The notes: generated by a model not told the origin, from the letters alone. A stretch of DNA of 64,000 nt from Escherichia coli (GCF_003334785.1 NZ_QOWV01000002.1), one strand, 5' to 3'; positions 3,905 to 33,913 are shown, counted from the stretch's first letter. Translations and numbers: made by a program.

Positions 3905-4176
3905 GTATTCGTATTGAAATTGGCGAACGTTATGTCGTTACCAGTGACAGCTTTCAGTTTATTCTCCACGAGAAAAAGAGAGCGGAAAGCGGTAAAAACG
4001 CCGGTCAGGAATGGCTGGCGGTGGTTGGTTATTACCCGAAATTAAGCCAGCTCGTTTCCGGCCTGATGCATCACGATATTCTGACCGGAAGCGCAAAGTC
4101 TTTTGCTGATTTAAACGCGCAGGTTGAGCAACTCAGCAAGCGTTGTTCAGAGGCTTTTGGCTCATATGGCCGTTAA
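3901..4176 (+). CDS. Hypothetical early protein (P2 orf83 position)
   Basis: ORF overlapping A start; synteny only. Confidence 0.45.
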   Translation: MSIRIEIGERYVVTSDSFQFILHEKKRAESGKNAGQEWLAVVGYYPKLSQLVSGLMHHDILTGSAKSFADLNAQVEQLSKRCSEAFGSYGR

Positions 4177-6451
4177 AGCCTCCGGGCGTTTTGTCCCTCC
4201 GTCAGCATTTGCTGCAGGCACCGGTAAGGCGTTTACCGGTGCTTATGCATGGAACGCGCCACGCGAGGCTGTCGGGCGCGAAAGACCCCTTACACGTGAC
4301 GAGATGCGTCAGGTGCAAGGTGTTTTATCCACGATTAACCGCCTGCCTTACTTTTTGCGCTCGCTGTTTACGTCACGCTATGACTACATCCGGCGCAATA
4401 AAAGCCCGGTGCACGGGTTTTATTTCCTCACATCCACTTTTCAGCGTCGTTTATGGCCGCGCATTGAGCGTGTGAATCAGCGCCATGAAATGAACACCGA
4501 CGCGTCGAAGCTGTTTCTGGCTGAGCGTGACCACTATGCGCGCCTGCCGGGAATGAATGACAAGGAGCTGAAAAAGTTTGCCGCCCGTATCTCATCGCAG
4601 CTTTTCATGATGTATGAGGAACTCAGCGATGCCTGGGTGGATGCGCATGGCGAGAAAGAATCGCTGTTTACGGATGAGGCGCAGGCTCACCTCTATGGTC
4701 ATGTTGCTGGCGCTGCACGTGCTTTCAATATTTCCCCGCTTTACTGGAAAAAATACCGTAAAGGACAGATGACCACGAGGCAGGCATATTCTGCAATTGC
4801 CCGTCTGTTTAACGATGAGTGGTGGACTCATCAGCTTAAAGGCCAGCGTATGCGCTGGCATGAAGCGTTACTGATAGCTGTCGGGGAGGTCAATAAAGAC
4901 CGTTCTCCTTATGCCAGTAAACACGCCATTCGTGATGTGCGTGCGCGCCGCCAGGCAAATCTGGAATTTCTTAAATCGTGTGACCTTGAAAACAGGGAAA
5001 CCGGCGAGCGCATCGACCTTATCAGTAAGGTGATGGGCAGTATTTCTAATCCTGAAATTCGCCGGATGGAGCTGATGAACACCATTGCCGGTATTGAGCG
5101 TTACGCCGCCGCAGAGGGTGATGTGGGGATGTTTATCACGCTGACCGCGCCGTCAAAGTATCACCCGACACGTCAGGTCAGAAAAGGCGAAAGTAAAACC
5201 GTTCAGCTAAATTACGGCTGGAACGATGAGGCATTTAATCCAAAGGATGCGCAGCGTTATCTCTGCCGTATCTGGAGCCTGATGCGCACGGCATTCAAGG
5301 ATAATGACTTACAGGTCTACGGTTTGCGTGTCGTCGAGCCACACCACGACGGAACGCCGCACTGGCATATGATGCTTTTTTGTAATCCACGCCAGCGTAA
5401 CCAGATTATTGAAATCATGCGTCGCTACGCGCTCAAAGAGGATGGAGACGAAAGAGGAGCTGCGCGAAACCGTTTTCAGGCAAAACACCTTAACCGGGGC
5501 GGTGCTGCGGGGTATATCGCGAAATACATCTCAAAAAACATCGATGGCTATGCACTGGATGGTCAGCTCGATAACGACACCGGCAGGCCGCTGAAAGACA
5601 CAGCCGCGGCTGTTACCGCATGGGCGTCAACGTGGCGCATACCACAATTTAAAACGGTTGGCCTGCCGACAATGGGGGCTTACCGTGAACTACGCAAATT
5701 GCCCCGCGGCGTCAGCATTGCTGATGAGTTTGACGAGCGCGTCGAGGCTGCACGCGCCGCCGCAGACAGTGGTGATTTTGCGCTGTATATCAGCGCGCAG
5801 GGCGGGGCAAATGTCCCGCGCGATTGTCAGACTGTCAGGGTCGCCCGTAGTCCGTCGGATGACGTTAACGAGTACGAGGAAGAAGTCGAGAGAGTGGTCG
5901 GCATTTACGCGCCGCATCTCGGCGCGCGTCATATTCATATCACCAGAACGACGGACTGGCACATTGTGCCGAAAGTTCCGGTCGTTGAGCCTTTGACTTT
6001 AAAAAGCGGCATCGCCGCGCCTCGGAGTCCTGTCAATAACTGTGGAAAACTCACCGGTGGTGATACTTCGTTACCGGCTCCCACACCTTCTGAGCACGCC
6101 GCAGCAGTGCTTAATCTGGTTGATGACGGTGTTATCGAATGGAGTGACCCGGAGGTCGTGAGGGCGCTCAGAGGTGCATTAAAACACGGTCGGAGAACGC
6201 CAAGTCGTCAGCAAAGAAACGGAAGCCCGTTAAAACCACATGAAATTGCACCATCGGCCAGACTGACCCGGTCGGAAAGAATGCAAATTACCCGTATCCG
6301 CGTTGACCTTGCTCAGAACGGTATCAGGCCGCAGCGATGGGAGCTTGAGGCGCTGGCGCGTGGCGCGACCGTAAATTATGACGGGAAAAAATTCACGTAT
6401 CCGGTCGCTGATGAGTGGCCGGGATTCTCAACAGTAATGGAGTGGACATGA
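4166..6451 (+). CDS. A: P2 A protein, rolling-circle replication initiation endonuclease (761 aa)
   Basis: MAVKASGRFVPPSAFAAGTG... with HUH-type motif region (PHWHMMLF) and active-site Tyr region (GYIAKYISK); length and sequence match P2 gpA as recalled. Confidence 0.85.
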   Translation: MAVKASGRFVPPSAFAAGTGKAFTGAYAWNAPREAVGRERPLTRDEMRQVQGVLSTINRLPYFLRSLFTSRYDYIRRNKSPVHGFYFLTSTFQRRLWPRIERVNQRHEMNTDASKLFLAERDHYARLPGMNDKELKKFAARISSQLFMMYEELSDAWVDAHGEKESLFTDEAQAHLYGHVAGAARAFNISPLYWKKYRKGQMTTRQAYSAIARLFNDEWWTHQLKGQRMRWHEALLIAVGEVNKDRSPYASKHAIRDVRARRQANLEFLKSCDLENRETGERIDLISKVMGSISNPEIRRMELMNTIAGIERYAAAEGDVGMFITLTAPSKYHPTRQVRKGESKTVQLNYGWNDEAFNPKDAQRYLCRIWSLMRTAFKDNDLQVYGLRVVEPHHDGTPHWHMMLFCNPRQRNQIIEIMRRYALKEDGDERGAARNRFQAKHLNRGGAAGYIAKYISKNIDGYALDGQLDNDTGRPLKDTAAAVTAWASTWRIPQFKTVGLPTMGAYRELRKLPRGVSIADEFDERVEAARAAADSGDFALYISAQGGANVPRDCQTVRVARSPSDDVNEYEEEVERVVGIYAPHLGARHIHITRTTDWHIVPKVPVVEPLTLKSGIAAPRSPVNNCGKLTGGDTSLPAPTPSEHAAAVLNLVDDGVIEWSDPEVVRALRGALKHGRRTPSRQQRNGSPLKPHEIAPSARLTRSERMQITRIRVDLAQNGIRPQRWELEALARGATVNYDGKKFTYPVADEWPGFSTVMEWT

Positions 6452-6777
6452 TGGCAAAAATTCACGAGGTAAAGCTGCACGCAAAATATTTCGACCTTGT
6501 ACTGGAAGGAAAGAAACGCGCAGAGTTTCGGAAAAAAGATCGTAATTATGAGCGCGGGGGCACGTTGATTTTGCATGAATGGGTGCAGGGTGTGTTTACG
6601 GGGCGAAAGGTTGAAGCCCGGATAACAGATGTTACTGACCTGTCAGACTGGCTGGAAGATTATGTCTTGCTGCACAGAATACTAGGTGAGATACTGCCGC
6701 TGACTGTCAAGCTGGCAGTATCCTCCACATTTTTTATAAATCTAAGGCGAAGAACGGTGGCAATATATTTGCTTTAA
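6448..6777 (+). CDS. Hypothetical protein (P2 orf91 position)
   Basis: MAKIHEVKLHAKYFDLVLEGKKRAEFRKKDRNYERGG...; start overlaps A stop; follows A as in P2. Confidence 0.5.
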   Translation: MMAKIHEVKLHAKYFDLVLEGKKRAEFRKKDRNYERGGTLILHEWVQGVFTGRKVEARITDVTDLSDWLEDYVLLHRILGEILPLTVKLAVSSTFFINLRRRTVAIYLL

Positions 6778-6815
6778 ATTGTAAATAAGCAAATTATTCT
6801 AAGCCACAAATGATA

Positions 6816-7577
6816 TCAATTGAGTATCGATTTTCGTTCGAATATAACCATAACGCCAAGCGTCAAATGTAAGTCATCTATATGTGATTCGTATTCATAT
6901 TGGTCAGCATCAGGAGGTAGTAAATGCTCTGCTGCTGTAAAAACATCAATTGTAACAGATATATCGTCTGGAATTTCTTCATTTAATTCGGATATGTATT
7001 TTTTATATTTGTTTTTTAATTTCCTTATCATGTCTTCCTTATGGTGGATTGTAGTGCAGTAATTTTTTTTAGTTGAATCATTGTATGAATGGAATGAACA
7101 GTTTAATGCTAGGCCAAGACTTGAATTTCCTGTAGGGCCTGTGTGTTTAAAGTATTCAAGATTTCTTCTTATGTCAGAAAATAAAAGACTTTTACAGGGG
7201 GCATTTCCTTTAACTTCTATTGCACATATTGGAATGTCGAAAAATGGTCTGCTGTCCAATATGGCAATATCAATTCTGCCTGATCTTGTTGTGTTTGTGT
7301 TTTTTCTGACAGTTTTTTTTGAGAATGTTTTTTGGGGGTCAGACCGTTTCGATAAAGGAACTGTTGCATTAATGAATTTATTTGTATGGTACTCAAATAT
7401 AACTTTGTAATCACCATGGCGAAAAGATTTTATTTCTAACAACGATAGACCTATAGATACGGTAGCTACATATTCAGTGTTTATTTTTGCACCAGACCTG
7501 AAATCCATTAAATAAGTTGCGTCGGCTGACTTTTTCATTCCATCTTTTACAGCTTTCACAATATCCATGTTATTCAT
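6816..7577 (-). CDS. tin: Tin-like protein (253 aa), the P2 T-even phage inhibition function
   Basis: 253-aa AT-rich ORF immediately downstream of old in the A-to-cos hotspot, the position of tin in P2. Identity rests on synteny and recalled size, not on a recognised motif. Confidence 0.55.
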   Translation of the reverse strand: MNNMDIVKAVKDGMKKSADATYLMDFRSGAKINTEYVATVSIGLSLLEIKSFRHGDYKVIFEYHTNKFINATVPLSKRSDPQKTFSKKTVRKNTNTTRSGRIDIAILDSRPFFDIPICAIEVKGNAPCKSLLFSDIRRNLEYFKHTGPTGNSSLGLALNCSFHSYNDSTKKNYCTTIHHKEDMIRKLKNKYKKYISELNEEIPDDISVTIDVFTAAEHLLPPDADQYEYESHIDDLHLTLGVMVIFERKSILN

Positions 7578-7751
7578 ATCAACACCTTTTATATTCCAGA
7601 ATTATAAATCTTAATGATTGATTTGTTTGTGTGTTTAGGTTACTAGATTGACGTACTTATAGCACATTCTGATTTTGAAATCACCATCCTTGGGTAAAGC
7701 ACAGCCTATCACTATTGGTTTAGTACTGTGCTGTAATAGTATCAGATTAAG

Positions 7752-9512
7752 TTAAATCCATTTTATGAAATCTTCCATTTCATCATATTTTTTTATTACT
7801 GCTCTAACATCTTTGCTTTCATCACATAAACAATCTAAAAGACTATCCCATTCAGTTTGTTTTTTACCAAATCCATAAACAGCCTCTATATCACCGGATT
7901 TCCATATATAGATTCCGTTATCTTTCAATTTTTGATGTATTTCATGTATATGCTTTTGTGTTTTTTCATGGTTACATATTTTGATGAAGTCTTTGCTTGA
8001 AATGCTTTTGAATGACTCAAAAGTAGTAACTTTTGTATTTAAACTAAGCTCTCCTGAGTTGATTGATTCAATCAAAGCAGTCAATAGATTATCACATTCA
8101 GTACTAAGTAAGTCTTTATGCTCTGTTAATAGAATATTTGATAAGAAATCACAATCAGCTAGAATCCTTGTTTTTATGCCGATGGCATTGATGATTTGTG
8201 ACATCTTAAATAAACTACCCTTACCGTCAACGGCAACAATGCAGATTTTACTCGGGTTGAGTTCATGTCCGTTAATTTTTTTATAAAGTGCATATAGAAC
8301 GTTTGTCTCTGTTTTCCCTTCAACAAGCAAAACTTCTTCAGAAAATAAAAGGTATGATGAATTAGAAAGCGTGAATGCTGAGTGCAATTGCGGTGATGAA
8401 GATTTATATAATTCTTCGATTTTTTCAGATATAGTCTTCCTTGCTATGGTTCCATTAGAATCCTTACAAACCTGAATCGCATTTGCTGCATGCTTTGCAG
8501 AAAGCATACTGGCTGAGTGAGTTGATATTATAACCTGATACCCTGATTCACTTAATGTGACAAGTGATTCTCTGACAGAATTAATGGCTGAAGGGTGTAA
8601 ATATAACTCAGGTTCATCAATGAAAATCAAAGTGTTTGATTTTTTTGATTCGCTGTTTTCTTTTTTTATTTCGGCCAGGTATTGAATTAATGCCATTTGA
8701 ATGGAACGTTGTGTTCCGTGACCAAATCGGCTGATATCTCTCATTACCGGTTCATCTTCCCGAGACTCAAAAACTTTCAGAGTGCCGGATTTAAATATCT
8801 CATCTAATGTCGGTGTGGGAAAGTGTAACTTTACACTTACGTCGGGAAAAAATTGGTTTACTTTTTTATTTACGCCTGAGTCTATTTTATTAAGGCTTTC
8901 TAATCTGTTCTCACCGTTGTGAGAAAGATATTTACCTATTTCTGATATGTTTTTTGAAAATTTTTCTTCGTGTTCTTGTTTTATTTCAGAAACAATTGCG
9001 GAAAGTATCTTTCCTATTGTGGTCGTGTTTTTGCATTTTGTTGAGTCTTCGACAGCGTCAGACATTGCAGGGATATGAATTGGTTCCGGAAATATATTGG
9101 AGATTGCACCATCTATGCCGCCAGGGTTTTTCTTCCACGTGGTACCGTCATATACATCCAGACTTTTTTTGGCTTTTCCTGTTTCCTTATTAAATTCCTG
9201 TCTTCTTGCAAAGGTAAGAGTCCCGTCAATTATAAACGGAGCTATTTTTTGTTGATTCTCTTCTGTTAACAAAGACAGAGTATCATCTGTTATACCTTGA
9301 ATAACGCCTTCAACGGATACGGGGTGTGTAGGATCGTACACATCTGATTCTGAAATCAAAGAGCCATCTAACAGCCACTTAATTGCTAAGATAATATTTG
9401 ATTTTCCTGCGTTATTATAACCAACTAAAGCAGTGAAGGGGCGCAAAATAGCCGATGTTGACTTACAAGAACGAAAGTTGCTAATTGAAACTGAAGCAAG
9501 ACGTACAGTCAT
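7752..9512 (-). CDS. old: Old exclusion protein: OLD-family ATPase/nuclease (586 aa)
   Basis: Walker A LVGYNNAGKSN near the N-terminus, Walker B-like LIFIDEPELYLHP mid-protein, C-terminal nuclease-type region; 586 aa and position next to cos match P2 Old. Confidence 0.8.
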   Translation of the reverse strand: MTVRLASVSISNFRSCKSTSAILRPFTALVGYNNAGKSNIILAIKWLLDGSLISESDVYDPTHPVSVEGVIQGITDDTLSLLTEENQQKIAPFIIDGTLTFARRQEFNKETGKAKKSLDVYDGTTWKKNPGGIDGAISNIFPEPIHIPAMSDAVEDSTKCKNTTTIGKILSAIVSEIKQEHEEKFSKNISEIGKYLSHNGENRLESLNKIDSGVNKKVNQFFPDVSVKLHFPTPTLDEIFKSGTLKVFESREDEPVMRDISRFGHGTQRSIQMALIQYLAEIKKENSESKKSNTLIFIDEPELYLHPSAINSVRESLVTLSESGYQVIISTHSASMLSAKHAANAIQVCKDSNGTIARKTISEKIEELYKSSSPQLHSAFTLSNSSYLLFSEEVLLVEGKTETNVLYALYKKINGHELNPSKICIVAVDGKGSLFKMSQIINAIGIKTRILADCDFLSNILLTEHKDLLSTECDNLLTALIESINSGELSLNTKVTTFESFKSISSKDFIKICNHEKTQKHIHEIHQKLKDNGIYIWKSGDIEAVYGFGKKQTEWDSLLDCLCDESKDVRAVIKKYDEMEDFIKWI

Positions 9513-9716
9513 TATTTTTCCTTAAATGTGCTATTTGTATGCAATGAGTTCATGCGAAACGCTTTTTTACATTTTATAGTCGTTGCATTCAAGGGTGCAT
9601 GAGATTGCATTAAGGGAAACTGTGATATGGCTTGGCTTTTGACTGGAAATACTGATGGCTCATTAGTTTTATTAAGGTGCATTAAAACCGCCCCGTGAAG
9701 CGGGCGGGCGAGGCGG

Positions 9717-9735
9717 GGAAAGCACTGCGCGCTGG
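9717..9735. other. cos cohesive-end sequence GGCGAGGCGGGGAAAGCAC
   Basis: Exact 19-nt match to the P2 cohesive end as I recall it, located between old and Q in a GC-rich region. Confidence 0.5.
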
Positions 9736-9865
9736 CGGTGGTGCTGATTTTGTTTTTTCAGCGTCTGAGCGCGTCGTGAAGGCGCTTAGTCTGCCCGTTG
9801 AGGCGTTGGTGTGTCTGCGGGGTGTTTTGTGCGGTGGTGAGCGTGTGAGGGCGTGATGACGGGGT

Positions 9866-9889
9866 GTAAAAAAGCCGCCCGCAGGCGGC
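9866..9889 (-). terminator. Rho-independent terminator just downstream of Q
   Basis: Palindrome GCCGCC-CGCA-GGCGGC (9874-9889) followed on the minus strand by a U-tract (plus-strand A-run 9868-9873). Confidence 0.6.
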
Positions 9890-9894
9890 GATGT

Positions 9895-10929
9895 TCAGCC
9901 GTTGTCTGTGTCCAGTGAGTAGTTTTTAAAGCGGATGACCTCCTGACCGAGCCAGCCGTTTATTTCCCGAATCCTGTCCTGTAACGGGATAAGCTCATTG
10001 CGGACAAAGACCTTTGCCACTTTCTCAATATCACCCAGCGACCCGACGTTCTCCGGCTTGCCGCCCATCAACTGAAAGGGGATGCGGTGCGCGTCCAGCA
10101 GGTCAGCGGCGCTGGCTTTTTTGATATTAAAAAAATCGTCCTTCGTTGCCACTTCACTGAGCGGGATAATTTTAATGCCGTCAGCTTTCCCCTGCGGGGC
10201 ATAGAGAAACAGATTTTTAAAGTTGTTGCGGCCTTTTGACTTCACCATGTTTTCGCGAAGCATTTCGATATCGTTGCGATCCTGCACGGCATCGGTGACG
10301 TACATGATATATCCGGCATGAGCGCCGTTTTCGTAATACTTGCGGCGGAACAGCGTGGCCGACTCATTCAGCCAGGCAGAATTAAGGGCGCTGAGATATT
10401 CCGGCAGGCCGTACAGCTCCTGATTAATATCCGGCTCCAGCAGGTGAAACACGGAGCCGGGCGCGAAGGCTGTCGGCTCGTTGAAGGACGGCACCCACCA
10501 GTAAACATCCTCCTCCACACCACGGCGGGTATATTTTGCCGGTGAGGTTTCCAGTCTGATGACCTTACCGGTGGTGCTGTAACGCTTTTCCAGAAACGCA
10601 TTACCGAACACCAGAAAATCCAGCACAAAGCGGCTGAAATCCTGCTGGGAAAGCCACGGGTGCGGAATAAACGTTGAAGCCAGAATATTACGTTTGACGT
10701 AAATCGGTGAGCTGTGATGCACGGCAGCACGCAGGCTTTTTGCCAGACCGGTAAAGCTGACCGGTGGCTCATACCATCTGCCGTTACTGATGCACTCGAC
10801 GTAATCCAGAATGTCACGGCGGTCGAGTACCGGCACCGGCTCACCAAAGGTGAATGCCTCCATTTTTGGGGCACTGGCAGTCATTTTTTTTGCCGCAGGT
10901 TGCGGTGTTTTCCCTTTTTTCTTGCTCAT
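9895..10929 (-). CDS. Q: Portal protein gpQ (344 aa)
   Basis: Size, order (Q-P divergent from O-N-M-L) and sequence match P2 Q. Confidence 0.85.
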   Translation of the reverse strand: MSKKKGKTPQPAAKKMTASAPKMEAFTFGEPVPVLDRRDILDYVECISNGRWYEPPVSFTGLAKSLRAAVHHSSPIYVKRNILASTFIPHPWLSQQDFSRFVLDFLVFGNAFLEKRYSTTGKVIRLETSPAKYTRRGVEEDVYWWVPSFNEPTAFAPGSVFHLLEPDINQELYGLPEYLSALNSAWLNESATLFRRKYYENGAHAGYIMYVTDAVQDRNDIEMLRENMVKSKGRNNFKNLFLYAPQGKADGIKIIPLSEVATKDDFFNIKKASAADLLDAHRIPFQLMGGKPENVGSLGDIEKVAKVFVRNELIPLQDRIREINGWLGQEVIRFKNYSLDTDNG

Positions 10930-15647: not shown

Positions 15648-16076
15648 GTGAGGGTGACCGGACTTATTGAATCGCTGTCACCGTCAGGGCGTCGGCGACT
15701 GAGCGCCGAACTGGCGAAACGTCTGCGGCAGAGTCAGCAGCGCCGGGTGATGGCACAGAAAGCCCCGGACGGCACACCCTACGCACCACGCCAGCAGCAG
15801 AGCGCCAGAAAAAAGACCGATCGCGTTAAGCGAAAAATGTTTGCGAAACTTATCACCAGTCGTTTTTTGCATATCCGCGCCAGCCCGGAACAGGCATCAA
15901 TGGAGTTTTTCGGCGGGAAGTCACCGAAAATCGCCAGCGTGCATCAGTTCGGTCTGTCGGAAGAAACCCGGAAAGACGGTAAGAAAATTGATTATCCGGC
16001 GCGTCCTCTGCTCGGCTTTACCGGTGAGGATGTGCAGATGATTGAAGAGATTATCCTGGCTCACCTTGAGCGTTAG
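15648..16076 (+). CDS. L: Head completion protein gpL (GTG start assumed)
   Basis: ORF in the same frame directly after M; last recognisable P2 head gene before the replaced segment. Confidence 0.7.
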   Translation: MRVTGLIESLSPSGRRRLSAELAKRLRQSQQRRVMAQKAPDGTPYAPRQQQSARKKTDRVKRKMFAKLITSRFLHIRASPEQASMEFFGGKSPKIASVHQFGLSEETRKDGKKIDYPARPLLGFTGEDVQMIEEIILAHLER

Positions 16077-16146: not shown

Positions 16147-16932
16147 TTATGAGTGGTTTTTATTTGATGCTTTGTATTCTAAAACCTTCTTATTGGCGTA
16201 AAAGAATTTTGTATATGACAGGAATATAAGCAGACCTGAAATGAAATAGATTAGGGATATTATTAATAATGTTTTTCTGTGGCTGTTATTATCTTTAATC
16301 TCCTGACTTAACCATTCGGAGTCCTCCTCGTTTAGCTGTAAGAGCTTATTGCAGGCGATCTCAGGAAGTGTGTCTTTTATAAATACGTTTTGCAGACTCT
16401 TGCAATCGGCAAGGCTATAAGTTTTATTAAATTCAACTGTTTTATTTTTGAAGGATAAAAGAACTTTGTCACTATAAACATAGTACATCATATTTTTATA
16501 TGGTATACCTATGGCATCCCTTACTATAGCGGATTGTTCATTGTGTATGTAACATGCGAAGATAATATAAAGAATTCCGGCCAGGACTGCACTCATTGTT
16601 TTTGTGATGCATGGCGGTTCTGTTATGTCTCCCCAGAAGCGAGTAAGGAAAAAATCCGATGTTTTTAGTTTTCCATCAATCAGCCCCTGCTGTATCATTC
16701 TCACATCTTCGATGCCTGATACATTGATTCCGTTAAGTGTTTTAAATAGTTGAATATCGCGCCACTCGCGGTCCAGTCTTTTTAATTTTTTGTCTGAATA
16801 TCCAAATTTGAAATAATGTGCAATAAGCCTCATAAGGTTACTTTTACCAAAGCTAAAAAATGCTAATACTGCAAAGACCAAAAGATACAAAACGATTAGC
16901 TCCCACACATTAGTCACATTATAGCTGACCAT
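16147..16932 (-). CDS. Hypothetical multi-pass membrane protein (261 aa), AT-rich foreign cargo
   Basis: Complete ORF on the opposite strand to flanking late genes; hydrophobic stretches at aa ~10-28, ~113-131 and ~222-240; strongly AT-rich, Lys/Asn/Ile/Tyr-rich; no motif recognised. Confidence 0.6.
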   Translation of the reverse strand: MVSYNVTNVWELIVLYLLVFAVLAFFSFGKSNLMRLIAHYFKFGYSDKKLKRLDREWRDIQLFKTLNGINVSGIEDVRMIQQGLIDGKLKTSDFFLTRFWGDITEPPCITKTMSAVLAGILYIIFACYIHNEQSAIVRDAIGIPYKNMMYYVYSDKVLLSFKNKTVEFNKTYSLADCKSLQNVFIKDTLPEIACNKLLQLNEEDSEWLSQEIKDNNSHRKTLLIISLIYFISGLLIFLSYTKFFYANKKVLEYKASNKNHS

Positions 16933-18908: not shown

Positions 18909-19512
18909 TTCGCGACTGCTGCCGACTGGCTCATCACCGCTTGAAGTCGCCGCCGCAAAAGCCTGTGCGGAAATTGAAAAAACGCCGGTCAGTATTCGTG
19001 AGCTGTGGAACCCGGACACCTGCCCGGCAAATCTGCTGCCGTGGCTGGCGTGGTCATTTTCGGTCGACAGGTGGGATGATAAGTGGCCGGAAGCGACAAA
19101 ACGCGCTGTTATCCGCGATGCGTATTTCATTCACTGCCATAAGGGCACTATTGGTGCGATTCGCCGTGTGGTGGAGCCGCTCGGCTATCTGATTGAGGTG
19201 AGGGAGTGGTGGCAGCTCAACGAGGAGCCGGGGACGTTCCGCATCGTTGTTGGCGTGCTTGAGCAGGGTATTACCGAGGAAATGTATCAGGAGCTGGAGC
19301 GCCTCGTTGCTGATGCAAAACCGGCGAGCCGCCATCTGACGGGACTGGCTATCAGTTTAAGTACAACCGGCAACATTTTTGCCGGTGCGGGATGCTATCA
19401 CGGTGACGCCCTGACGGTTTATCCCTACACCCCGGAGGCCATTATTGTCGGAGGGGATTATTTCCCGGCCTCGGCCATTCATTTAATTGATAACCTGAGA
19501 GTAAACGCATGA
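18901..19512 (+). CDS. I: Baseplate protein gpI
   Basis: MSDSRLLPTGSSPLEVAAAKACAEIEKTPVSIRELWNPDTCPANLLPWLAW...; order J-I-H. Confidence 0.8.
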   Translation: MSDSRLLPTGSSPLEVAAAKACAEIEKTPVSIRELWNPDTCPANLLPWLAWSFSVDRWDDKWPEATKRAVIRDAYFIHCHKGTIGAIRRVVEPLGYLIEVREWWQLNEEPGTFRIVVGVLEQGITEEMYQELERLVADAKPASRHLTGLAISLSTTGNIFAGAGCYHGDALTVYPYTPEAIIVGGDYFPASAIHLIDNLRVNA

Positions 19513-29588: not shown

Positions 29589-29615
29589 AAAAAATAAGCC
29601 CGTGTAAGGGAGATT
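29589..29615. other. Prophage attachment core (attR), AAAAAATAAGCCCGTGTAAGGGAGATT
   Basis: 27-bp sequence matching the P2 att core as I recall it; coincides with the terminator/3' end of cyaR. Confidence 0.6.
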
Positions 29616-29759: not shown

Positions 29760-31121
29760 TCACTTACCGTGGGGGTTACGCGTGGTTTCCCCGGAGAAAT
29801 TACGCATCAGCAGCGCGTAATTGAGCTCAAGATCCTGCGGGACCGGGAGCCACACAGTATAACCATCGCCTGGTGCGACCGGCATCGCTTCACCTTTGGC
29901 GTTTTCCATGTGCTCAAGGGTAAAGTTAATGTTGCCTTGCGGCGTCATCAGCTCAAGGCTGTCGCCAACGGAGAATTTATTTTTCACCGCTACCGCTGCG
30001 AGGTCCCCCTTGCGCTCACCGGTAAACTCACCAACAAACTGCTGGCGGTCAGAAACTGAATAACCGTATTCGTAGTTCTGATAATCGTCGTGAGTATGAC
30101 GACGAAGGAAACCTTCGGTATAGCCACGATGCGCCAGACCTTCCAGAGTTTCCAGCAGGCTGGTATCGAACGGTTTGCCCGCAGCGGCGTCATCGATAGC
30201 TTTACGGTAAACCTGTGCGGTGCGTGCGCAATAGTAGAAAGATTTAGTACGGCCTTCGATTTTCAGCGAATGCACGCCCATTTTGGTCAGGCGTTCTACA
30301 TGGGCGATGGCGCGCAGATCTTTCGAGTTCATGATGTAAGTGCCGTGCTCATCTTCAAACGCGGTCATATACTCGCCCGGACGCTGGGCCTCTTCGATCA
30401 TAAACACTTTGTCGGTTGGTGCGCCGATACCCAGCGTCGGCTCAACATTTTGCACCGGAATCGGCTCGTACTTGTGTACGATGTTGCCAACATCATCTTC
30501 TTTCCCTTCCTGGACGTTGTACTCCCAGCGGCAGGCGTTGGTGCAGGTGCCCTGGTTCGGGTCGCGCTTGTTGATATAGCCAGAGAGCAGGCAGCGACCG
30601 GAGTAGGCCATGCACAGCGCGCCGTGAACGAAGATCTCGATCTCCATATCCGGCACCTGATTGCGGATCTCTTCAATCTCTTCCAGCGACAGCTCGCGAG
30701 AGAGGATCACGCGGGTCAGGCCCATTTGCTGCCAGAATTTCACCGTCGCCCAGTTCACGGCGTTAGCCTGCACCGAAAGGTGGATCGGCATTTCAGGGAA
30801 GTGCTCACGCACCAGCATAATCAGCCCTGGATCGGACATAATCAGCGCATCCGGCCCCATTTCCACCACCGGTTTCAGGTCACGGATAAAGGTTTTCAGC
30901 TTGGCGTTGTGCGGTGCAATGTTGACCACGACATAAAACTTTTTCCCCAGCGCGTGGGCTTCATTGATGCCGAGCTGAAGATTTTCGTGGTTGAATTCGT
31001 TGTTGCGCACACGCAGGGAGTAACGCGGCTGGCCCGCATAAACAGCATCTGCGCCATAAGCGAAAGCGTAACGCATATTTTTCAGCGTTCCCGCCGGGGA
31101 AAGGAGTTCCGGTTTAAACAT
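29760..31121 (-). CDS. yegQ: Peptidase U32-family protein YegQ (453 aa)
   Basis: MFKPELLSPAGTLKNMRYAFAYGADAVYAGQPRYSLR...; K-12 gene order. Confidence 0.9.
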   Translation of the reverse strand: MFKPELLSPAGTLKNMRYAFAYGADAVYAGQPRYSLRVRNNEFNHENLQLGINEAHALGKKFYVVVNIAPHNAKLKTFIRDLKPVVEMGPDALIMSDPGLIMLVREHFPEMPIHLSVQANAVNWATVKFWQQMGLTRVILSRELSLEEIEEIRNQVPDMEIEIFVHGALCMAYSGRCLLSGYINKRDPNQGTCTNACRWEYNVQEGKEDDVGNIVHKYEPIPVQNVEPTLGIGAPTDKVFMIEEAQRPGEYMTAFEDEHGTYIMNSKDLRAIAHVERLTKMGVHSLKIEGRTKSFYYCARTAQVYRKAIDDAAAGKPFDTSLLETLEGLAHRGYTEGFLRRHTHDDYQNYEYGYSVSDRQQFVGEFTGERKGDLAAVAVKNKFSVGDSLELMTPQGNINFTLEHMENAKGEAMPVAPGDGYTVWLPVPQDLELNYALLMRNFSGETTRNPHGK

Positions 31122-31267
31122 AATTCTCTCGTTCTGATGACAGGTCAGATCCGCTTCACCTGATGAAGCGGTTAGGGGAGTGCCCCCACTTTAAGGGCGG
31201 GCATTGTAGCGCTGTGGGGGGATCTGGTAAAGCGCCGGACGCCAACAACCCACGCCCGGCATCGTAA

Positions 31268-31600
31268 TTACGTATTGTCTTTCACCGTCTGGCTTGTGCC
31301 ATTGGCTTTAACGGAGGCAATTCCGGTTTCACGAGATTGCGCGGTGGCGTACATCTGGCTGGAGCCGATAATTTGATGATTAGCGGCTTTCAGATTGAAA
31401 TAGAATTTGCCGTTACTTGCCGTTTTTTTCTCATAGCGTTCTTCTTGCGGGCTGTTGCTACGCACCGACGCGATGCCCTTTTCCGCAGAGGCTTTTGAGG
31501 TATAAAGCTCGCTGGTGAGGATCGTCTCACCATTGCCCGCTTTTAGCACAAACCGGAACTGATTATCACTGCTCTTACTGAGTTCAAACCAACCAGCCAT
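31268..31600 (-). CDS. yegP: YegP (UPF0339/DUF1508 tandem-repeat protein, 110 aa)
   Basis: MAGWFELSKSSDNQFRFVLKAGNGETILTSELYTSKASAEKGIASVRSNS... Confidence 0.85.
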   Translation of the reverse strand: MAGWFELSKSSDNQFRFVLKAGNGETILTSELYTSKASAEKGIASVRSNSPQEERYEKKTASNGKFYFNLKAANHQIIGSSQMYATAQSRETGIASVKANGTSQTVKDNT

Positions 31601-31790
31601 AATGACTCCTTGATTGAAATTGTGTATCGAAAACAGCATCTAAAGGTGCTGTTTACCGATTAAAGTATGAGCGATTTTCTGATGCCTGCCAGGGCGGAGA
31701 GATAATGTCAGTTTGCTGACCATGCGTGGGATAATGTTGCCGGATCTGGTCTGAACGCCATCTCCGGCTAACAAAATAATGTCGCTAAAA

Positions 31791-32513
31791 CTAAACGATG
31801 CGGCAGGCGTCGGCTTCCCAGCGGTAACCGACGCCATAAACGGCGCGGATAAATGACTGTTCGGCGTCGAGAGATTCCAGCTTGCGGCGCAGGTTTTTAA
31901 TGTGGCTGTCGATGGTGCGGTCGGTTACTACGCGGTAGTCGTCATAAAGATGATTGAGCAATTGCTCGCGGGAGAACACTTTTCCTGGTTCGTGAGAGAG
32001 CGTTTTCAGCAGACGAAATTCCGCAGGCGTCAGGTCAAGCATTTTACCGCGCCATGAAGCCTGAAAACGACCTTCGTCGATAATCAACGGGCTTTCAGCA
32101 TCCTGTTGCTGCAACTCGCGCTGCGGTTTGCAACGGCGCAAAATGGTTTTGACGCGCGCTACCACTTCCCGTGGGCTGTACGGCTTACAGATATAATCAT
32201 CTGCGCCAATCTCCAGCCCCAGCAGGCGATCGATCTCTTCGATTTTTGCCGTCACCATCACGATCGGAATGTCAGAAAAACGACGAATTTCCCGGCACAG
32301 CGTCAGGCCATCGGTGCCAGGGAGCATCAGATCTAACAGGATCAGATCCGGTGGTGTCTGGCGCACATACGGCAGTACCTGATCGCCGTGGCTGATAAGC
32401 GTCGGCGCATAGCTCGCAGCACGCAGATAATCAATGAGCAACTGCCCCAGCTTCGGTTCATCTTCCACGATCAAAATACGCGGTGTGTTTTCGTCGATTG
32501 GTAACTCGGTCAT
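31791..32513 (-). CDS. baeR: Response regulator BaeR (OmpR family, 240 aa)
   Basis: Receiver domain (LIVEDEP...DLMLPG) plus winged-helix C-terminus; follows baeS. Confidence 0.9.
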
Positions 32514-33913
32514 ACTTCTCTCTGTAAATCCCGTTCCAGCGGTAACTCTACTGTAATGCTTACCCCGCCAAAAGGCGAATGGGCAGCAATAATGCGACCA
32601 TTATGTGCTTCAACAATGTTCAGGCAAATCGCCAGCCCCAGCCCGGAACCGCCGCTGGCACGGTTGCGGGAACCTTCGGTGCGATAAAAACGTTCAAACA
32701 ATTTTTGTAGCTGATCGTCACTGACACCTGGCGCACTGTCGGCAAAGGTCAGGCGCACCGTTTTGTCGCGCTGCCCGGCAGAGATTTGCAGGCTGCCGCC
32801 GCTGTCAGTGTAGCGCAGGCTGTTTTCCAGTAAGTTATTGAATAACTGCATTAAACGGTCGCGATCGCCAAATACGGTAATACTGTCTGGCAGGGAAAAT
32901 TGCAGTTTCAGGCCACGACTGGCGAATCGTTCGCGAAATGCGCCGCCCGCCACTTCCAGCAGTGGGATCAAATCTACCGGTGCTTTTTGATAGGCGAGAG
33001 CGCCTTCATCAGACATCGACAACTGATGGAGATCGTCAACCAGTTTGGTCAGTGTACCGACCTCCGCCTGTAAAGACGCCACCGTCTCCGGCGTGAATTT
33101 ACGCACGCCATCCTGAATGGCTTCCAGTTCACCGCGCAGCACCGCTAATGGCGTACGCAGTTCGTGAGAAATATCGGCCATAAAATCGCGCCGCATTTGC
33201 TGGTTTTTCTCCAGTGTGCTGGCAAGCTGGTTGAAGTCTTGCGCCAGTTTGCCCAGTTCATCTTCACTGGTGGGCGTTACGCGGGTAGTGAAATCGCCCG
33301 CCGCCAGTTTGTGCGTGCCATCGACAAGTCGTTTTACCGGTGCCAGTAAACCGCGCGCCAGCAGAAAAGTGGCAAGTGCCGCGAGTAACGTTGCCAGGGC
33401 GACAATCAACCAGCTGGTTTGCCGCTGTTGTTTATCGAAATTGATATCAGTATTGCGCGTTAACCGCTCAACGGGGGAGGCGATCACCGCGCCAACTTCC
33501 GCACCGTTGACCAGAATGGGTCGCCGTGTACCGTCAGGTGGAATCGGCGCTCGCGGACCAACCAGCACTTTGTTGTTTTGATCAACCACCCAGAACTGGG
33601 TACGCCAGCCGTGCGGTGGCATACCCGGGCCGGGTTTATCTTCCGAATTATCGTGTTCAAATGAACGCAGGATCTGAAAGACAAAGCGATCATTGTTGCG
33701 CAGGAAGCGCCAGTTGCCATGCTGCGCATACTGCTCGCCAAGCGCATCACTTAACAGTTGTAATCGCTGTTCATTACCATGCTTGATGTAATCAATAAAG
33801 CCACGCTCAAAACTGATACGCACCGCCCAGTGCATACTGATCAGCAAGACAATGCAGGTGGCGAAAATCGCCAGAAACAGTTTGCCGGTAATACCGGGTC
33901 GCCAGAACTTCAT
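32510..33913 (-). CDS. baeS: Sensor histidine kinase BaeS (467 aa)
   Basis: Two TM segments, HAMP, H-box (SHELRTPL) and ATPase motifs; overlaps baeR start. Confidence 0.9.

Follow-up and report, generated by a model that had tools for sequence, protein, structure and literature searches.

The old–tin cassette of bacteriophage P2 in a defective P2-type prophage of Escherichia coli

Layout of the cassette and state of its carrier

The window—the whole stretch of DNA analyzed here, 64,000 nucleotides from Escherichia coli (GCF_003334785.1 NZ_QOWV01000002.1)—carries a low-GC cargo segment between the replication gene A (4124–6451) and cos. In 500-nt windows, the GC content is 0.30 to 0.39 from approximately 6750 to 9500 and 0.50 to 0.60 on either side. 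Taken by segment, it amounts to 0.345 for 6672–9660, with an approximate right edge (tin, 0.332; old, 0.349), compared with 0.528 for the rest of the prophage and 0.529 for the host flank, in line with the low GC that a preliminary description had noted between gene A and cos. The segment holds two genes on the minus strand: old (7752–9512, 586 aa) and tin (6816–7577, 253 aa), both of which that description had placed correctly.

The left hotspot border is formed by orf91 (6448–6777, plus strand), a DUF3850/ASCH-domain gene of 109 aa (Pfam DUF3850, 8.5e-15; ASCH, 4e-10) that is identical to P2 Orf91 at 108 of 109 residues. The last ~35 codons of orf91 (from ~6672) fall inside the variable segment. 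The full-length version in other prophages is 147 aa long, and PGAP marks the P2-type copy as C-terminally incomplete. The right hotspot border is cos, a 19-nt site (9707–9725, plus strand) that matches GGCGAGGCGGGGAAAGCAC exactly and corresponds to cosR of AF063097 (33575–33593); this is the only copy in the window, and 100 shuffles contain none. The cos of the prophage is a joined cosR/cosL. The portal gene Q follows at 9895–10929. An Rfam search of 6300–10000 at E ≤ 1 returned no RNA family. The preliminary description had drawn the locus as 6448–9512: This covers old and tin, leaves out their promoter and leader (~9513–9592), and takes in the 5′ two-thirds of orf91, a conserved part outside the variable segment. 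Position 6448 is the ATG of orf91, a third gene that was absent from the description.

Other P2-like phages are homologous up to 6671 and again from near 9665, ~60 nt short of cos. Of the 78 phage records that match, P2 alone spans the variable segment, and 76 match the flanks only. Hence, the cargo between gene A and cos/gene Q differs among colinear P2-like phages, as is expected of a hotspot. The gpA-to-gpQ (cos-proximal) defence hotspot of P2-like phages was defined by Rousset et al. 2022 (PMC9122126), so the earlier mention of a known variable anti-phage hotspot agrees with the published locus.

The window from 6300 to 9725 aligns with 30168–33593 of phage P2 (AF063097) at a nucleotide identity of 99.7% over 3426 nt, and the annotations beneath this match are old, tin, orf91, A, and cosR. 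The region 6672–9660 is almost certainly the classical lysogenic-conversion cassette of bacteriophage P2, consisting of old and tin as two independent anti-phage genes, and nothing argues against this identification. The cassette has been described before, and other groups have put both systems to experimental test. The identification itself is of minor importance: P2 lysogenic conversion by old and tin is textbook knowledge, and their hotspot is published. The cassette is rare: Of 5426 complete E. coli genomes, 17 carry it, although 1132 genomes match the prophage junction (ogr/yegQ) at the same site.

The carrier prophage is defective. A 1250-bp IS3-family element interrupts cox, a deletion of ~3 kb has removed L, X, the holin and endolysin genes, lysA/B/C, and R (lysis and head/tail-completion functions), and S lacks a start. 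Such damage could suggest that the cassette, too, is a decaying, non-functional relic. This is highly improbable: The old and tin ORFs are of full length with neither frameshift nor stop; Old differs from P2 by only two synonymous changes, and Tin has the same sequence as its counterpart in a wild prophage that is intact; no damage is seen in the promoter, the ribosome-binding sites, or any catalytic residue; and the cassette is more conserved relative to P2 (99.8–99.9%) than the flanking gene A (about 97–98%). The cassette genes are thus intact, although the defective carrier is a caveat to their function in this copy. An intact cassette in a prophage unable to excise or lyse fits retention for host benefit.

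Transcription and independence of old and tin

The two genes would be transcribed leftward from a single constitutive promoter adjoining cos, in a P2-type prophage inserted beside yegQ. The P2 record (AF063097) annotates one old–tin mRNA, and its transcript starts at 33426/33424 transfer via the colinear alignment to 9558 and 9556. The putative promoter (9556–9592, minus strand) features a −35 hexamer TTGAAT (9592–9587), a 17-nt spacer, and a −10 hexamer TAAAAA (9569–9564), a geometry that fits the annotated transcript starts. A sigma-70 consensus scan, which found 4 promoter-like sites compared with 11.3 in shuffles, missed the annotated old promoter because its −10 is weak; the promoter was therefore placed from the transcript starts of the P2 record. 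A 56-aa ORF (9512–9682, minus strand) that overlaps the old promoter and leader was dismissed as non-coding.

A spacer of 174 nt (7578–7751, minus strand) separates old from tin, and the tin ribosome-binding site (AAAAGGTG) forms its end. The consensus scan of its minus strand gave no promoter, so a separate tin promoter is unsupported. The terminator scan detected a terminator-like, G+C-rich hairpin with a TTTT tail (9688–9707, minus strand); it sits between cos and the old promoter and probably insulates old–tin against late P–Q read-through. The P2 tQ terminator lies farther upstream, at 9874–9889.

The adjacency of old and tin on one strand, their single annotated mRNA, their co-occurrence in the 17 E. 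coli genomes and in one diverged allele pair, and the listing of ‘Old-tin’ as one system in some reviews could be taken to indicate a two-component system, in which Tin serves as partner or effector—like GajB for GajA—and neither protein works alone. Genomic context and literature reject this reading, which was already largely refuted and which we give very little credence. Homologues of Tin occur without any OLD gene in five of the six distinct contexts sampled: in a Pectobacterium AlpA island, in a Klebsiella AlpA/DUF927 island, in P2-like prophages between S and V, in such prophages after the tail-fibre assembly gene, and in a Morganella lambdoid prophage. In addition, Old and Tin were tested separately in BASEL and differ in their target ranges, and OLD alone yields defence and toxicity (preprint 10.64898/2026.07.10.737580). 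The rates of protein evolution are also far apart, with omega at 0.41 for Tin and 0.04 for Old—in the one allele pair compared, Tin changes ~10 times faster than Old on the same transcript. The faster change resembles an arms race with a phage protein, for which one pair is weak evidence.

Old and Tin are independent modules sharing a transcript, since the homologues of Tin mostly lack Old, and Tin is a single-gene module that moves among no fewer than five types of site in prophages or islands. Of the preliminary wording ‘classical old/tin pair’, ‘classical’ thus stands for the P2 genes, and ‘pair’ gives way to two independent systems.

The Old and Tin proteins

Old is a stand-alone class 1 OLD-family protein, in which an ABC-type ATPase sensor (residues ~1–340) is fused to a Toprim nuclease (~389–455 and the C-terminal region). 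It is identical to P2 Old (AAD03309) at 586 of 586 residues, with two synonymous nucleotide changes, and hence is the founding OLD exclusion protein, as had been supposed; it matches the PADLOC Old model at 1.3e-214. Its Pfam domains are AAA_15, AAA_21, SMC_N, and OLD-like_TOPRIM (PF20469, 4.2e-17, residues 389–455). The ATPase motifs are complete: Besides the Walker A and Walker B motifs noted before—GYNNAGKS at residues 31 to 38, including K37, and LIFIDEPELYLHP from residue 295—there is an H-loop with H332. The nuclease-type C terminus seen in the preliminary description proves to be the Toprim domain, and all of the residues E398, K400, E402, D453, D455, and D541, which constitute the catalytic pocket of P2 OLD according to preprint 10.64898/2026.07.10.737580, are found.

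The structure and tRNase mechanism of the identical Old were recently described in the same preprint (10.64898/2026.07.10.737580). According to it, P2 OLD rests as a closed tetramer and is triggered by aberrant DNA, which builds up in the absence of RecBCD or under its inhibition (by lambda Gam, for instance), and also by single-stranded hairpins at the replicating phage origin. Activated P2 OLD excises the anticodon arm from a subset of host tRNAs, leading to a translation stop and aborted infection. The literature on the identical protein covers lambda exclusion, killing of recBC cells, and cleavage of tRNA anticodon arms. Because the proteins are identical, the published mechanism transfers directly to Old here.

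Tin is a single-domain T-even exclusion protein of 253 aa with a predicted PD-(D/E)xK fold. It is identical to P2 Tin (AAD03308) at 251 of 253 residues, with the same length and position, and to Tin of the P2 prophage of wild E. coli 101EVA at 253 of 253. The two differences to P2 Tin, I84T and S221P, fall at alignment positions where family members vary freely. Tin matches the PADLOC Tin model at 8.8e-98 (residues 2–249) and phrog_9821 at 1.3e-176, and tin sits downstream of old in the A-to-cos locus, colinear with AF063097 including the annotated transcript starts. The assignment, made beforehand on synteny and size, no longer depends on these alone because of the identity to P2 Tin and the PADLOC match. 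The preliminary description had allowed that the 253-aa protein might bear no similarity to P2 Tin and that the 586-aa protein might lack the catalytic Toprim residues; neither is the case.

The structure prediction of Tin, which is of high confidence (pLDDT 94), features a restriction-endonuclease-like PD-(D/E)xK fold with an alpha-beta-beta-beta-alpha-beta core. In the predicted core, E35 lies on helix 1, D103 (in GRIDIA) on strand 2, and E121-V-K123 (in CAIEVKG) on strand 3. All 63 distant relatives, at 17 to 45% identity, retain E35, E62, D103, E121, K123, D135, and R138. Full-length AFDB relatives retrieved by Foldseek carry restriction endonuclease or PD-(D/E)XK annotations. At the level of sequence profiles, Pfam gives no match for Tin or for any of the 63 relatives, NCBIfam gives none for Tin, and the search of PDB sequences with two profiles yields no convincing match, so that no curated nuclease family is matched. 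The sole matches were to RASSF5, LytE, and NDUFA6 at E values of 0.1 to 0.5 and are regarded as chance, being low-complexity and helical. The family comprises about 200 clusters at 50% identity and has neither a Pfam nor an NCBIfam model.

[quoted passage not shown] 1997, as cited in later work). The predicted fold and the invariant E-D-ExK site lead to the reading of Tin as a nuclease. Tin may be an active PD-(D/E)xK nuclease and the founder of an uncurated family of stand-alone defence nucleases of ~250 aa, with cleavage licensed by T-even gp32—a proposal that we hold evenly in the balance. In this proposal, the nuclease would be Mg-dependent, and its action would depend on gp32 or gp32-coated replication DNA instead of being purely that of a stoichiometric ‘poison’. 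The nucleic acid cleaved could be replication DNA or another nucleic acid.

Inactive PD-(D/E)xK scaffolds are known in the superfamily. Tin could likewise be non-catalytic, its fold a scaffold only, and bind and ‘poison’ T-even gp32 stoichiometrically; this we consider a serious, if somewhat doubtful, alternative. Poisoning of gp32 is the published model, and the escape mutations map to gene 32 (Mosig et al. 1997, as cited in later work); furthermore, no report of a nuclease activity of Tin was found in the literature searched. Nor did that literature contain a paper that links Tin to a nuclease fold, although database wikis or subscription journals could hold one. Against the scaffold stands the full set of metal-binding and catalytic residues (E35, D103, E121, and K123), which none of the 63 relatives lacks, even at 17% identity. 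The surface of Tin diverges quickly beside this invariant site, a pattern difficult to reconcile with dispensable catalysis, and relatives are found in bacteria and settings in which gp32 of T-even phages cannot be the sole ligand.

The fold and the invariant active-site residues of a restriction-type nuclease in Tin are the only, and mildly, new point. The mechanism of Tin had rested on the ‘gp32 poisoning’ model of 1997, and Tin bears a fully conserved nuclease site of the restriction type. If gp32-licensed cleavage is true, Tin would join the newer defence systems in which SSB or replication proteins of the phage are sensed, such as retron Eco8, Hachiman, and Nhi.

Comparison with known systems

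The type II restriction endonucleases of the BamHI/BglII/OkrAI group and the CBASS effector NucC share ~10% identity with Tin and have no profile-level link to it. An orphan type II restriction enzyme was considered for Tin, and membership in type II restriction-modification was rejected: A neighbouring methyltransferase is missing from every context examined, both the cassette of the window and nine homologue contexts. As for a NucC-type effector, there is no evidence for a cyclic-nucleotide-binding site or a signalling partner in Tin.

P2 Old (AAD03309) has the same sequence, position, orientation, promoter, and neighbour genes as Old here; the difference lies in the carrier, which is a diverged, defective P2-type prophage and not P2 itself. 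The nearest solved relatives are the class 1 OLD of Thermus scotoductus (PDB 6p74) and Gabija GajA (for example, 8j4t and 8jq9). They share the ABC ATPase and Toprim parts with Old, and the region from Walker B to Toprim aligns with E values of 1e-10 to 4e-9; the sequence similarity is distant. The PADLOC profiles of GajA and AriA match Old at 1e-20 to 1e-33. Unlike GajA with GajB, Old has no UvrD-type helicase partner: Its neighbours are tin (253 aa, lacking a helicase domain) and the promoter/cos region, with no UvrD/PcrA-type helicase adjacent. Finally, Old is reported as a resting tetramer that cuts tRNA rather than DNA.

The old-tin cassette and its locus

The region 6400–9900 contains three sizeable ORFs: orf91 (6448–6777, + strand, 109 aa), tin (6816–7577, − strand, 253 aa), and old (7752–9512, − strand, 586 aa). 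The left neighbor is gene A (4124–6451, + strand) and the right neighbor is the portal gene Q (9895–10929, − strand). The range of 6448–9512 in the preliminary description encloses these ORFs; however, it begins at the start codon of orf91, which went unmentioned, and ends at the start codon of old, so that the promoter is left outside. The low GC content noticed there between gene A and cos is borne out: GC drops from 0.50–0.57 to 0.30–0.39 over about 6750–9500 and then rises again. The segment 6672–9660 has a GC of 0.345 (tin 0.332, old 0.349), compared with 0.528 for the rest of the prophage and 0.529 for the host flank. The cos 19-mer GGCGAGGCGGGGAAAGCAC occurs a single time in the window, at 9707–9725.

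A megablast of 6300–9900 against 50,697 phage records yields phage P2 (AF063097/NC_001895) at 99.7% identity across 3426 nt. This alignment stops precisely at the right cohesive end and spans the annotated features A, orf91, tin, old, and cosR. Old is identical to P2 Old in 586/586 residues, with two synonymous nucleotide changes, Tin in 251/253 (I84T and S221P), and Orf91 in 108/109. PADLOC recognizes both Old (1.3e-214) and Tin (8.8e-98). The pair is, as had been judged, the classical one of P2 rather than a new one, and the assignment of Tin, formerly based on synteny and size, now has direct similarity behind it. The cassette is nearly identical to the founding old-tin cassette and already known. 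Since Tin of the window matches Tin of E. coli 101EVA, where the P2 prophage is intact, in 253/253 residues, I84T and S221P are natural polymorphisms relative to the laboratory P2 record; both sit in freely varying columns of the Tin-family alignment.

The two old-tin transcript starts of the P2 record map to 9558 and 9556. Upstream of them, on the − strand, lies a promoter with the −35 element TTGAAT (9592–9587), a 17-nt spacer, and the −10 element TAAAAA (9569–9564). A consensus promoter scan missed this promoter and found no separate one for tin. Between cos and the old-tin promoter, a G+C-rich hairpin followed by TTTT is located at 9707–9688 (− strand), and the tQ terminator at 9889–9874 (− strand). 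Together, these two elements would halt late P–Q transcription short of old. No RNA family was found around the cassette.

The A-to-cos locus, described earlier as a variable antiphage hotspot, corresponds to the gpA–gpQ defense hotspot of Rousset et al. 2022 (PMC9122126), for which 18,150 locus occurrences with 1,650 gene arrangements were reported; broad defense by cloned old-tin was confirmed in the same study. Among the 78 matching phage records, only the two of P2 cover the cargo. The others match 6300–6671 and, in some cases, also the last approximately 60–240 nt before and beyond cos. The left break falls at 6671–6674, inside orf91. At this position, other prophages carry a 147-aa DUF3850/ASCH/DUF7415 protein, and PGAP calls the P2-type copy C-terminally incomplete. 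As judged by these comparisons, orf91 is a C-terminally replaced form of the 147-aa gene that is intact in other P2-like prophages, and the left recombination boundary of the hotspot falls inside it. The old-tin cargo is rare, occurring in 17 of 5426 complete E. coli genomes (14 at ≥99% and 3 at 93–95%); a probe for the ogr/yegQ junction matched over at least 80% in 1132 of the same 5426.

The carrier prophage

The layout of the prophage was determined by aligning the window locally with P2 (blastn). The window begins within int, and the prophage ends at 29615, adjoining yegQ/trhP, the insertion site, at which K-12 keeps the ogrK remnant. Among the 5426 complete E. coli genomes, the host flank reaches at best 99.6% identity, so the source strain is absent from this set. 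The cox gene is split by an IS3-family element of 1250 bp (959–2208), which may hint at a Shigella-like background, with IS911-type ends (TGAAGTGG...) and a 3-bp target duplication, ACA, at 956–958 and 2209–2211. This insertion should prevent excision as well as the lytic switch. At approximately 15652–15657, P2 5950–8942 (~3 kb) is deleted, which takes out L, X, the holin Y, the endolysin K, lysA/B/C, and R and also strips S of its first ~9 codons. Because of this loss, the prophage can neither lyse the cell nor complete virions, and the carrier is defective.

In addition, 19338–22803 takes the place of P2 12630–17571, which comprises the end of I together with H, G, and fun(Z). The replacement features a different, shorter tail-fiber gene (19509–20645), a fiber assembly gene (20647–21087), an alternative pair of fiber tip and assembly gene in opposite orientation (21059–22203, − strand), and a serine recombinase (22225–22824). 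It resembles an invertible host-range segment of the Mu/P1 type. The third P2 defense gene, fun(Z), is absent from the prophage. The nucleotide identity to P2 is higher for old-tin (99.8–99.9%) than for gene A (about 97–98%).

The S–V junction carries P2 orf30 (16147–16932, − strand), which encodes 261 aa at a GC of 0.349 and has no PADLOC or NCBIfam match. In another P2-like prophage (sequence L015, 6001–6804), a Tin homologue occupies exactly this site, which suggests that the position of orf30 is a further cargo or defense site.

Old and Tin as separate modules

Old features matches to AAA_15, AAA_21, and SMC_N across the N-terminal 340 residues and to OLD-like_TOPRIM at 389–455. The Walker A and Walker B strings noticed earlier begin at residues 31 and 295, and the C-terminal region does prove to be of the nuclease type, with the Toprim residues present. 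The closest solved relatives by sequence are the class 1 OLD of Thermus scotoductus (6p74) and several GajA structures. Old retains K37, H332, E398, K400, E402, D453, D455, and D541. These are the residues that a preprint on P2 Old of July 2026 (10.64898/2026.07.10.737580) assigns to the H-loop and the Toprim pocket; defense is reported there to be lost in H332A and E402A. According to this work, Old at rest is an inactive tetramer, whose Toprim cleft opens upon destabilization to dimers. When active, the protein excises the anticodon arm of tRNA-Thr(UGU), Gly(UCC), fMet, Val(UAC), and Pro(UGG). It is reportedly activated by aberrant DNA in RecBCD-deficient cells, by inhibitors of RecBCD (lambda Gam, for example), and by ssDNA hairpins at the lambda origin. 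Because the two proteins are identical, the published tRNA-cleavage mechanism would apply to Old of the window, on the basis of this literature.

Old and Tin could in principle form a single system, as both are carried on one transcript. Among six Tin homologues (41–82% identity), an OLD neighbor occurs only for the 82%-identical E. coli allele at the same A-to-cos locus. The others reside in a Pectobacterium AlpA/H-NS island, in a P2-like prophage after the tail-fiber assembly gene, in a Morganella lambdoid prophage between integrase and tail fiber, in a Klebsiella AlpA/DUF927 island, and in the S–V interval of a P2-like prophage. Furthermore, Old and Tin were assayed separately in BASEL, and OLD alone gives defense (10.64898/2026.07.10.737580). 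These contexts and assays argue against a single system and show that Old and Tin are two independent modules with a common transcript in P2.

Three more distant Tin relatives lie in transposase-rich DNA, by a ThsB-TIR gene, and by a resolvase; none of the three has a methyltransferase neighbor. One distant family member (P0050) is located immediately upstream of genes for a ThsB-type TIR protein and an '8xMP' membrane protein in two independent metagenome contigs (L018, 324–2473; L019, 234–2383). This grouping may be a defense-island association.

The two genes also differ in evolutionary rate, as judged by the Nei–Gojobori method applied to 6816–9512 and a diverged natural allele from E. coli NCTC11476 (L022, 1616–4321). 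Tin differs in 45/253 residues and Old in 9/586. The values are dS 0.24, dN 0.096, and ω 0.41 for tin and dS 0.16, dN 0.0065, and ω 0.04 for old, with an ω of 0.05 for Q. Since synonymous divergence is similar, the protein sequence of Tin changes about ten times faster than that of Old within one operon in the one pair compared. The catalytic residues—putative in the case of Tin—are all unchanged in both proteins. The high ω of tin may stem from relaxed constraint or from diversifying selection acting on the Tin surface, this single pair being compatible with both alike.

Predicted fold of Tin

Searches of Pfam, NCBIfam, and PDB sequences gave no match for Tin. Only 23 clusters, all 'hypothetical', came from a word-indexed search of 5.8 billion proteins. 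When 1.84 billion representatives were scanned in full with an HMM, 196 clusters passed E ≤ 1e-3, almost all of them single-domain proteins of about 250 aa. Across 63 aligned full-length members (17–45% identical to Tin), seven positions are invariant: E35, E62, D103, E121, K123, D135, and R138. Two AlphaFold2 models, built from 21 and 63 sequences with a pLDDT of 81.9 and 93.9, respectively, both feature an α-β-β-β-α-β core. E35 is positioned at the start of helix 34–46, D103 on strand 101–109 (motif GRIDIA), and E121-V-K123 on strand 114–125 (motif CAIEVKG). In the models, this placement corresponds to the canonical PD-(D/E)xK arrangement. Foldseek against AFDB50 retrieved full-length relatives (TM 0.7–0.8, 20–38% identity), several of which carry the label restriction endonuclease or PD-(D/E)XK. 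Hence, a restriction-endonuclease-like fold is predicted for Tin with high confidence, and since the catalytic signature is universally retained, Tin is likely catalytic.

NgoMIV, BstYI, and Bse634I are named beside this predicted fold. In the searchable papers, Tin is described only as a protein that poisons T4 gp32 (Mosig et al. 1997, as cited there), as specific for all Tevenvirinae (BASEL), or as one among several systems that are escaped via mutations in replication proteins; a nuclease fold is mentioned in none of them. The predicted nuclease site bears on the poisoning model of 1997.
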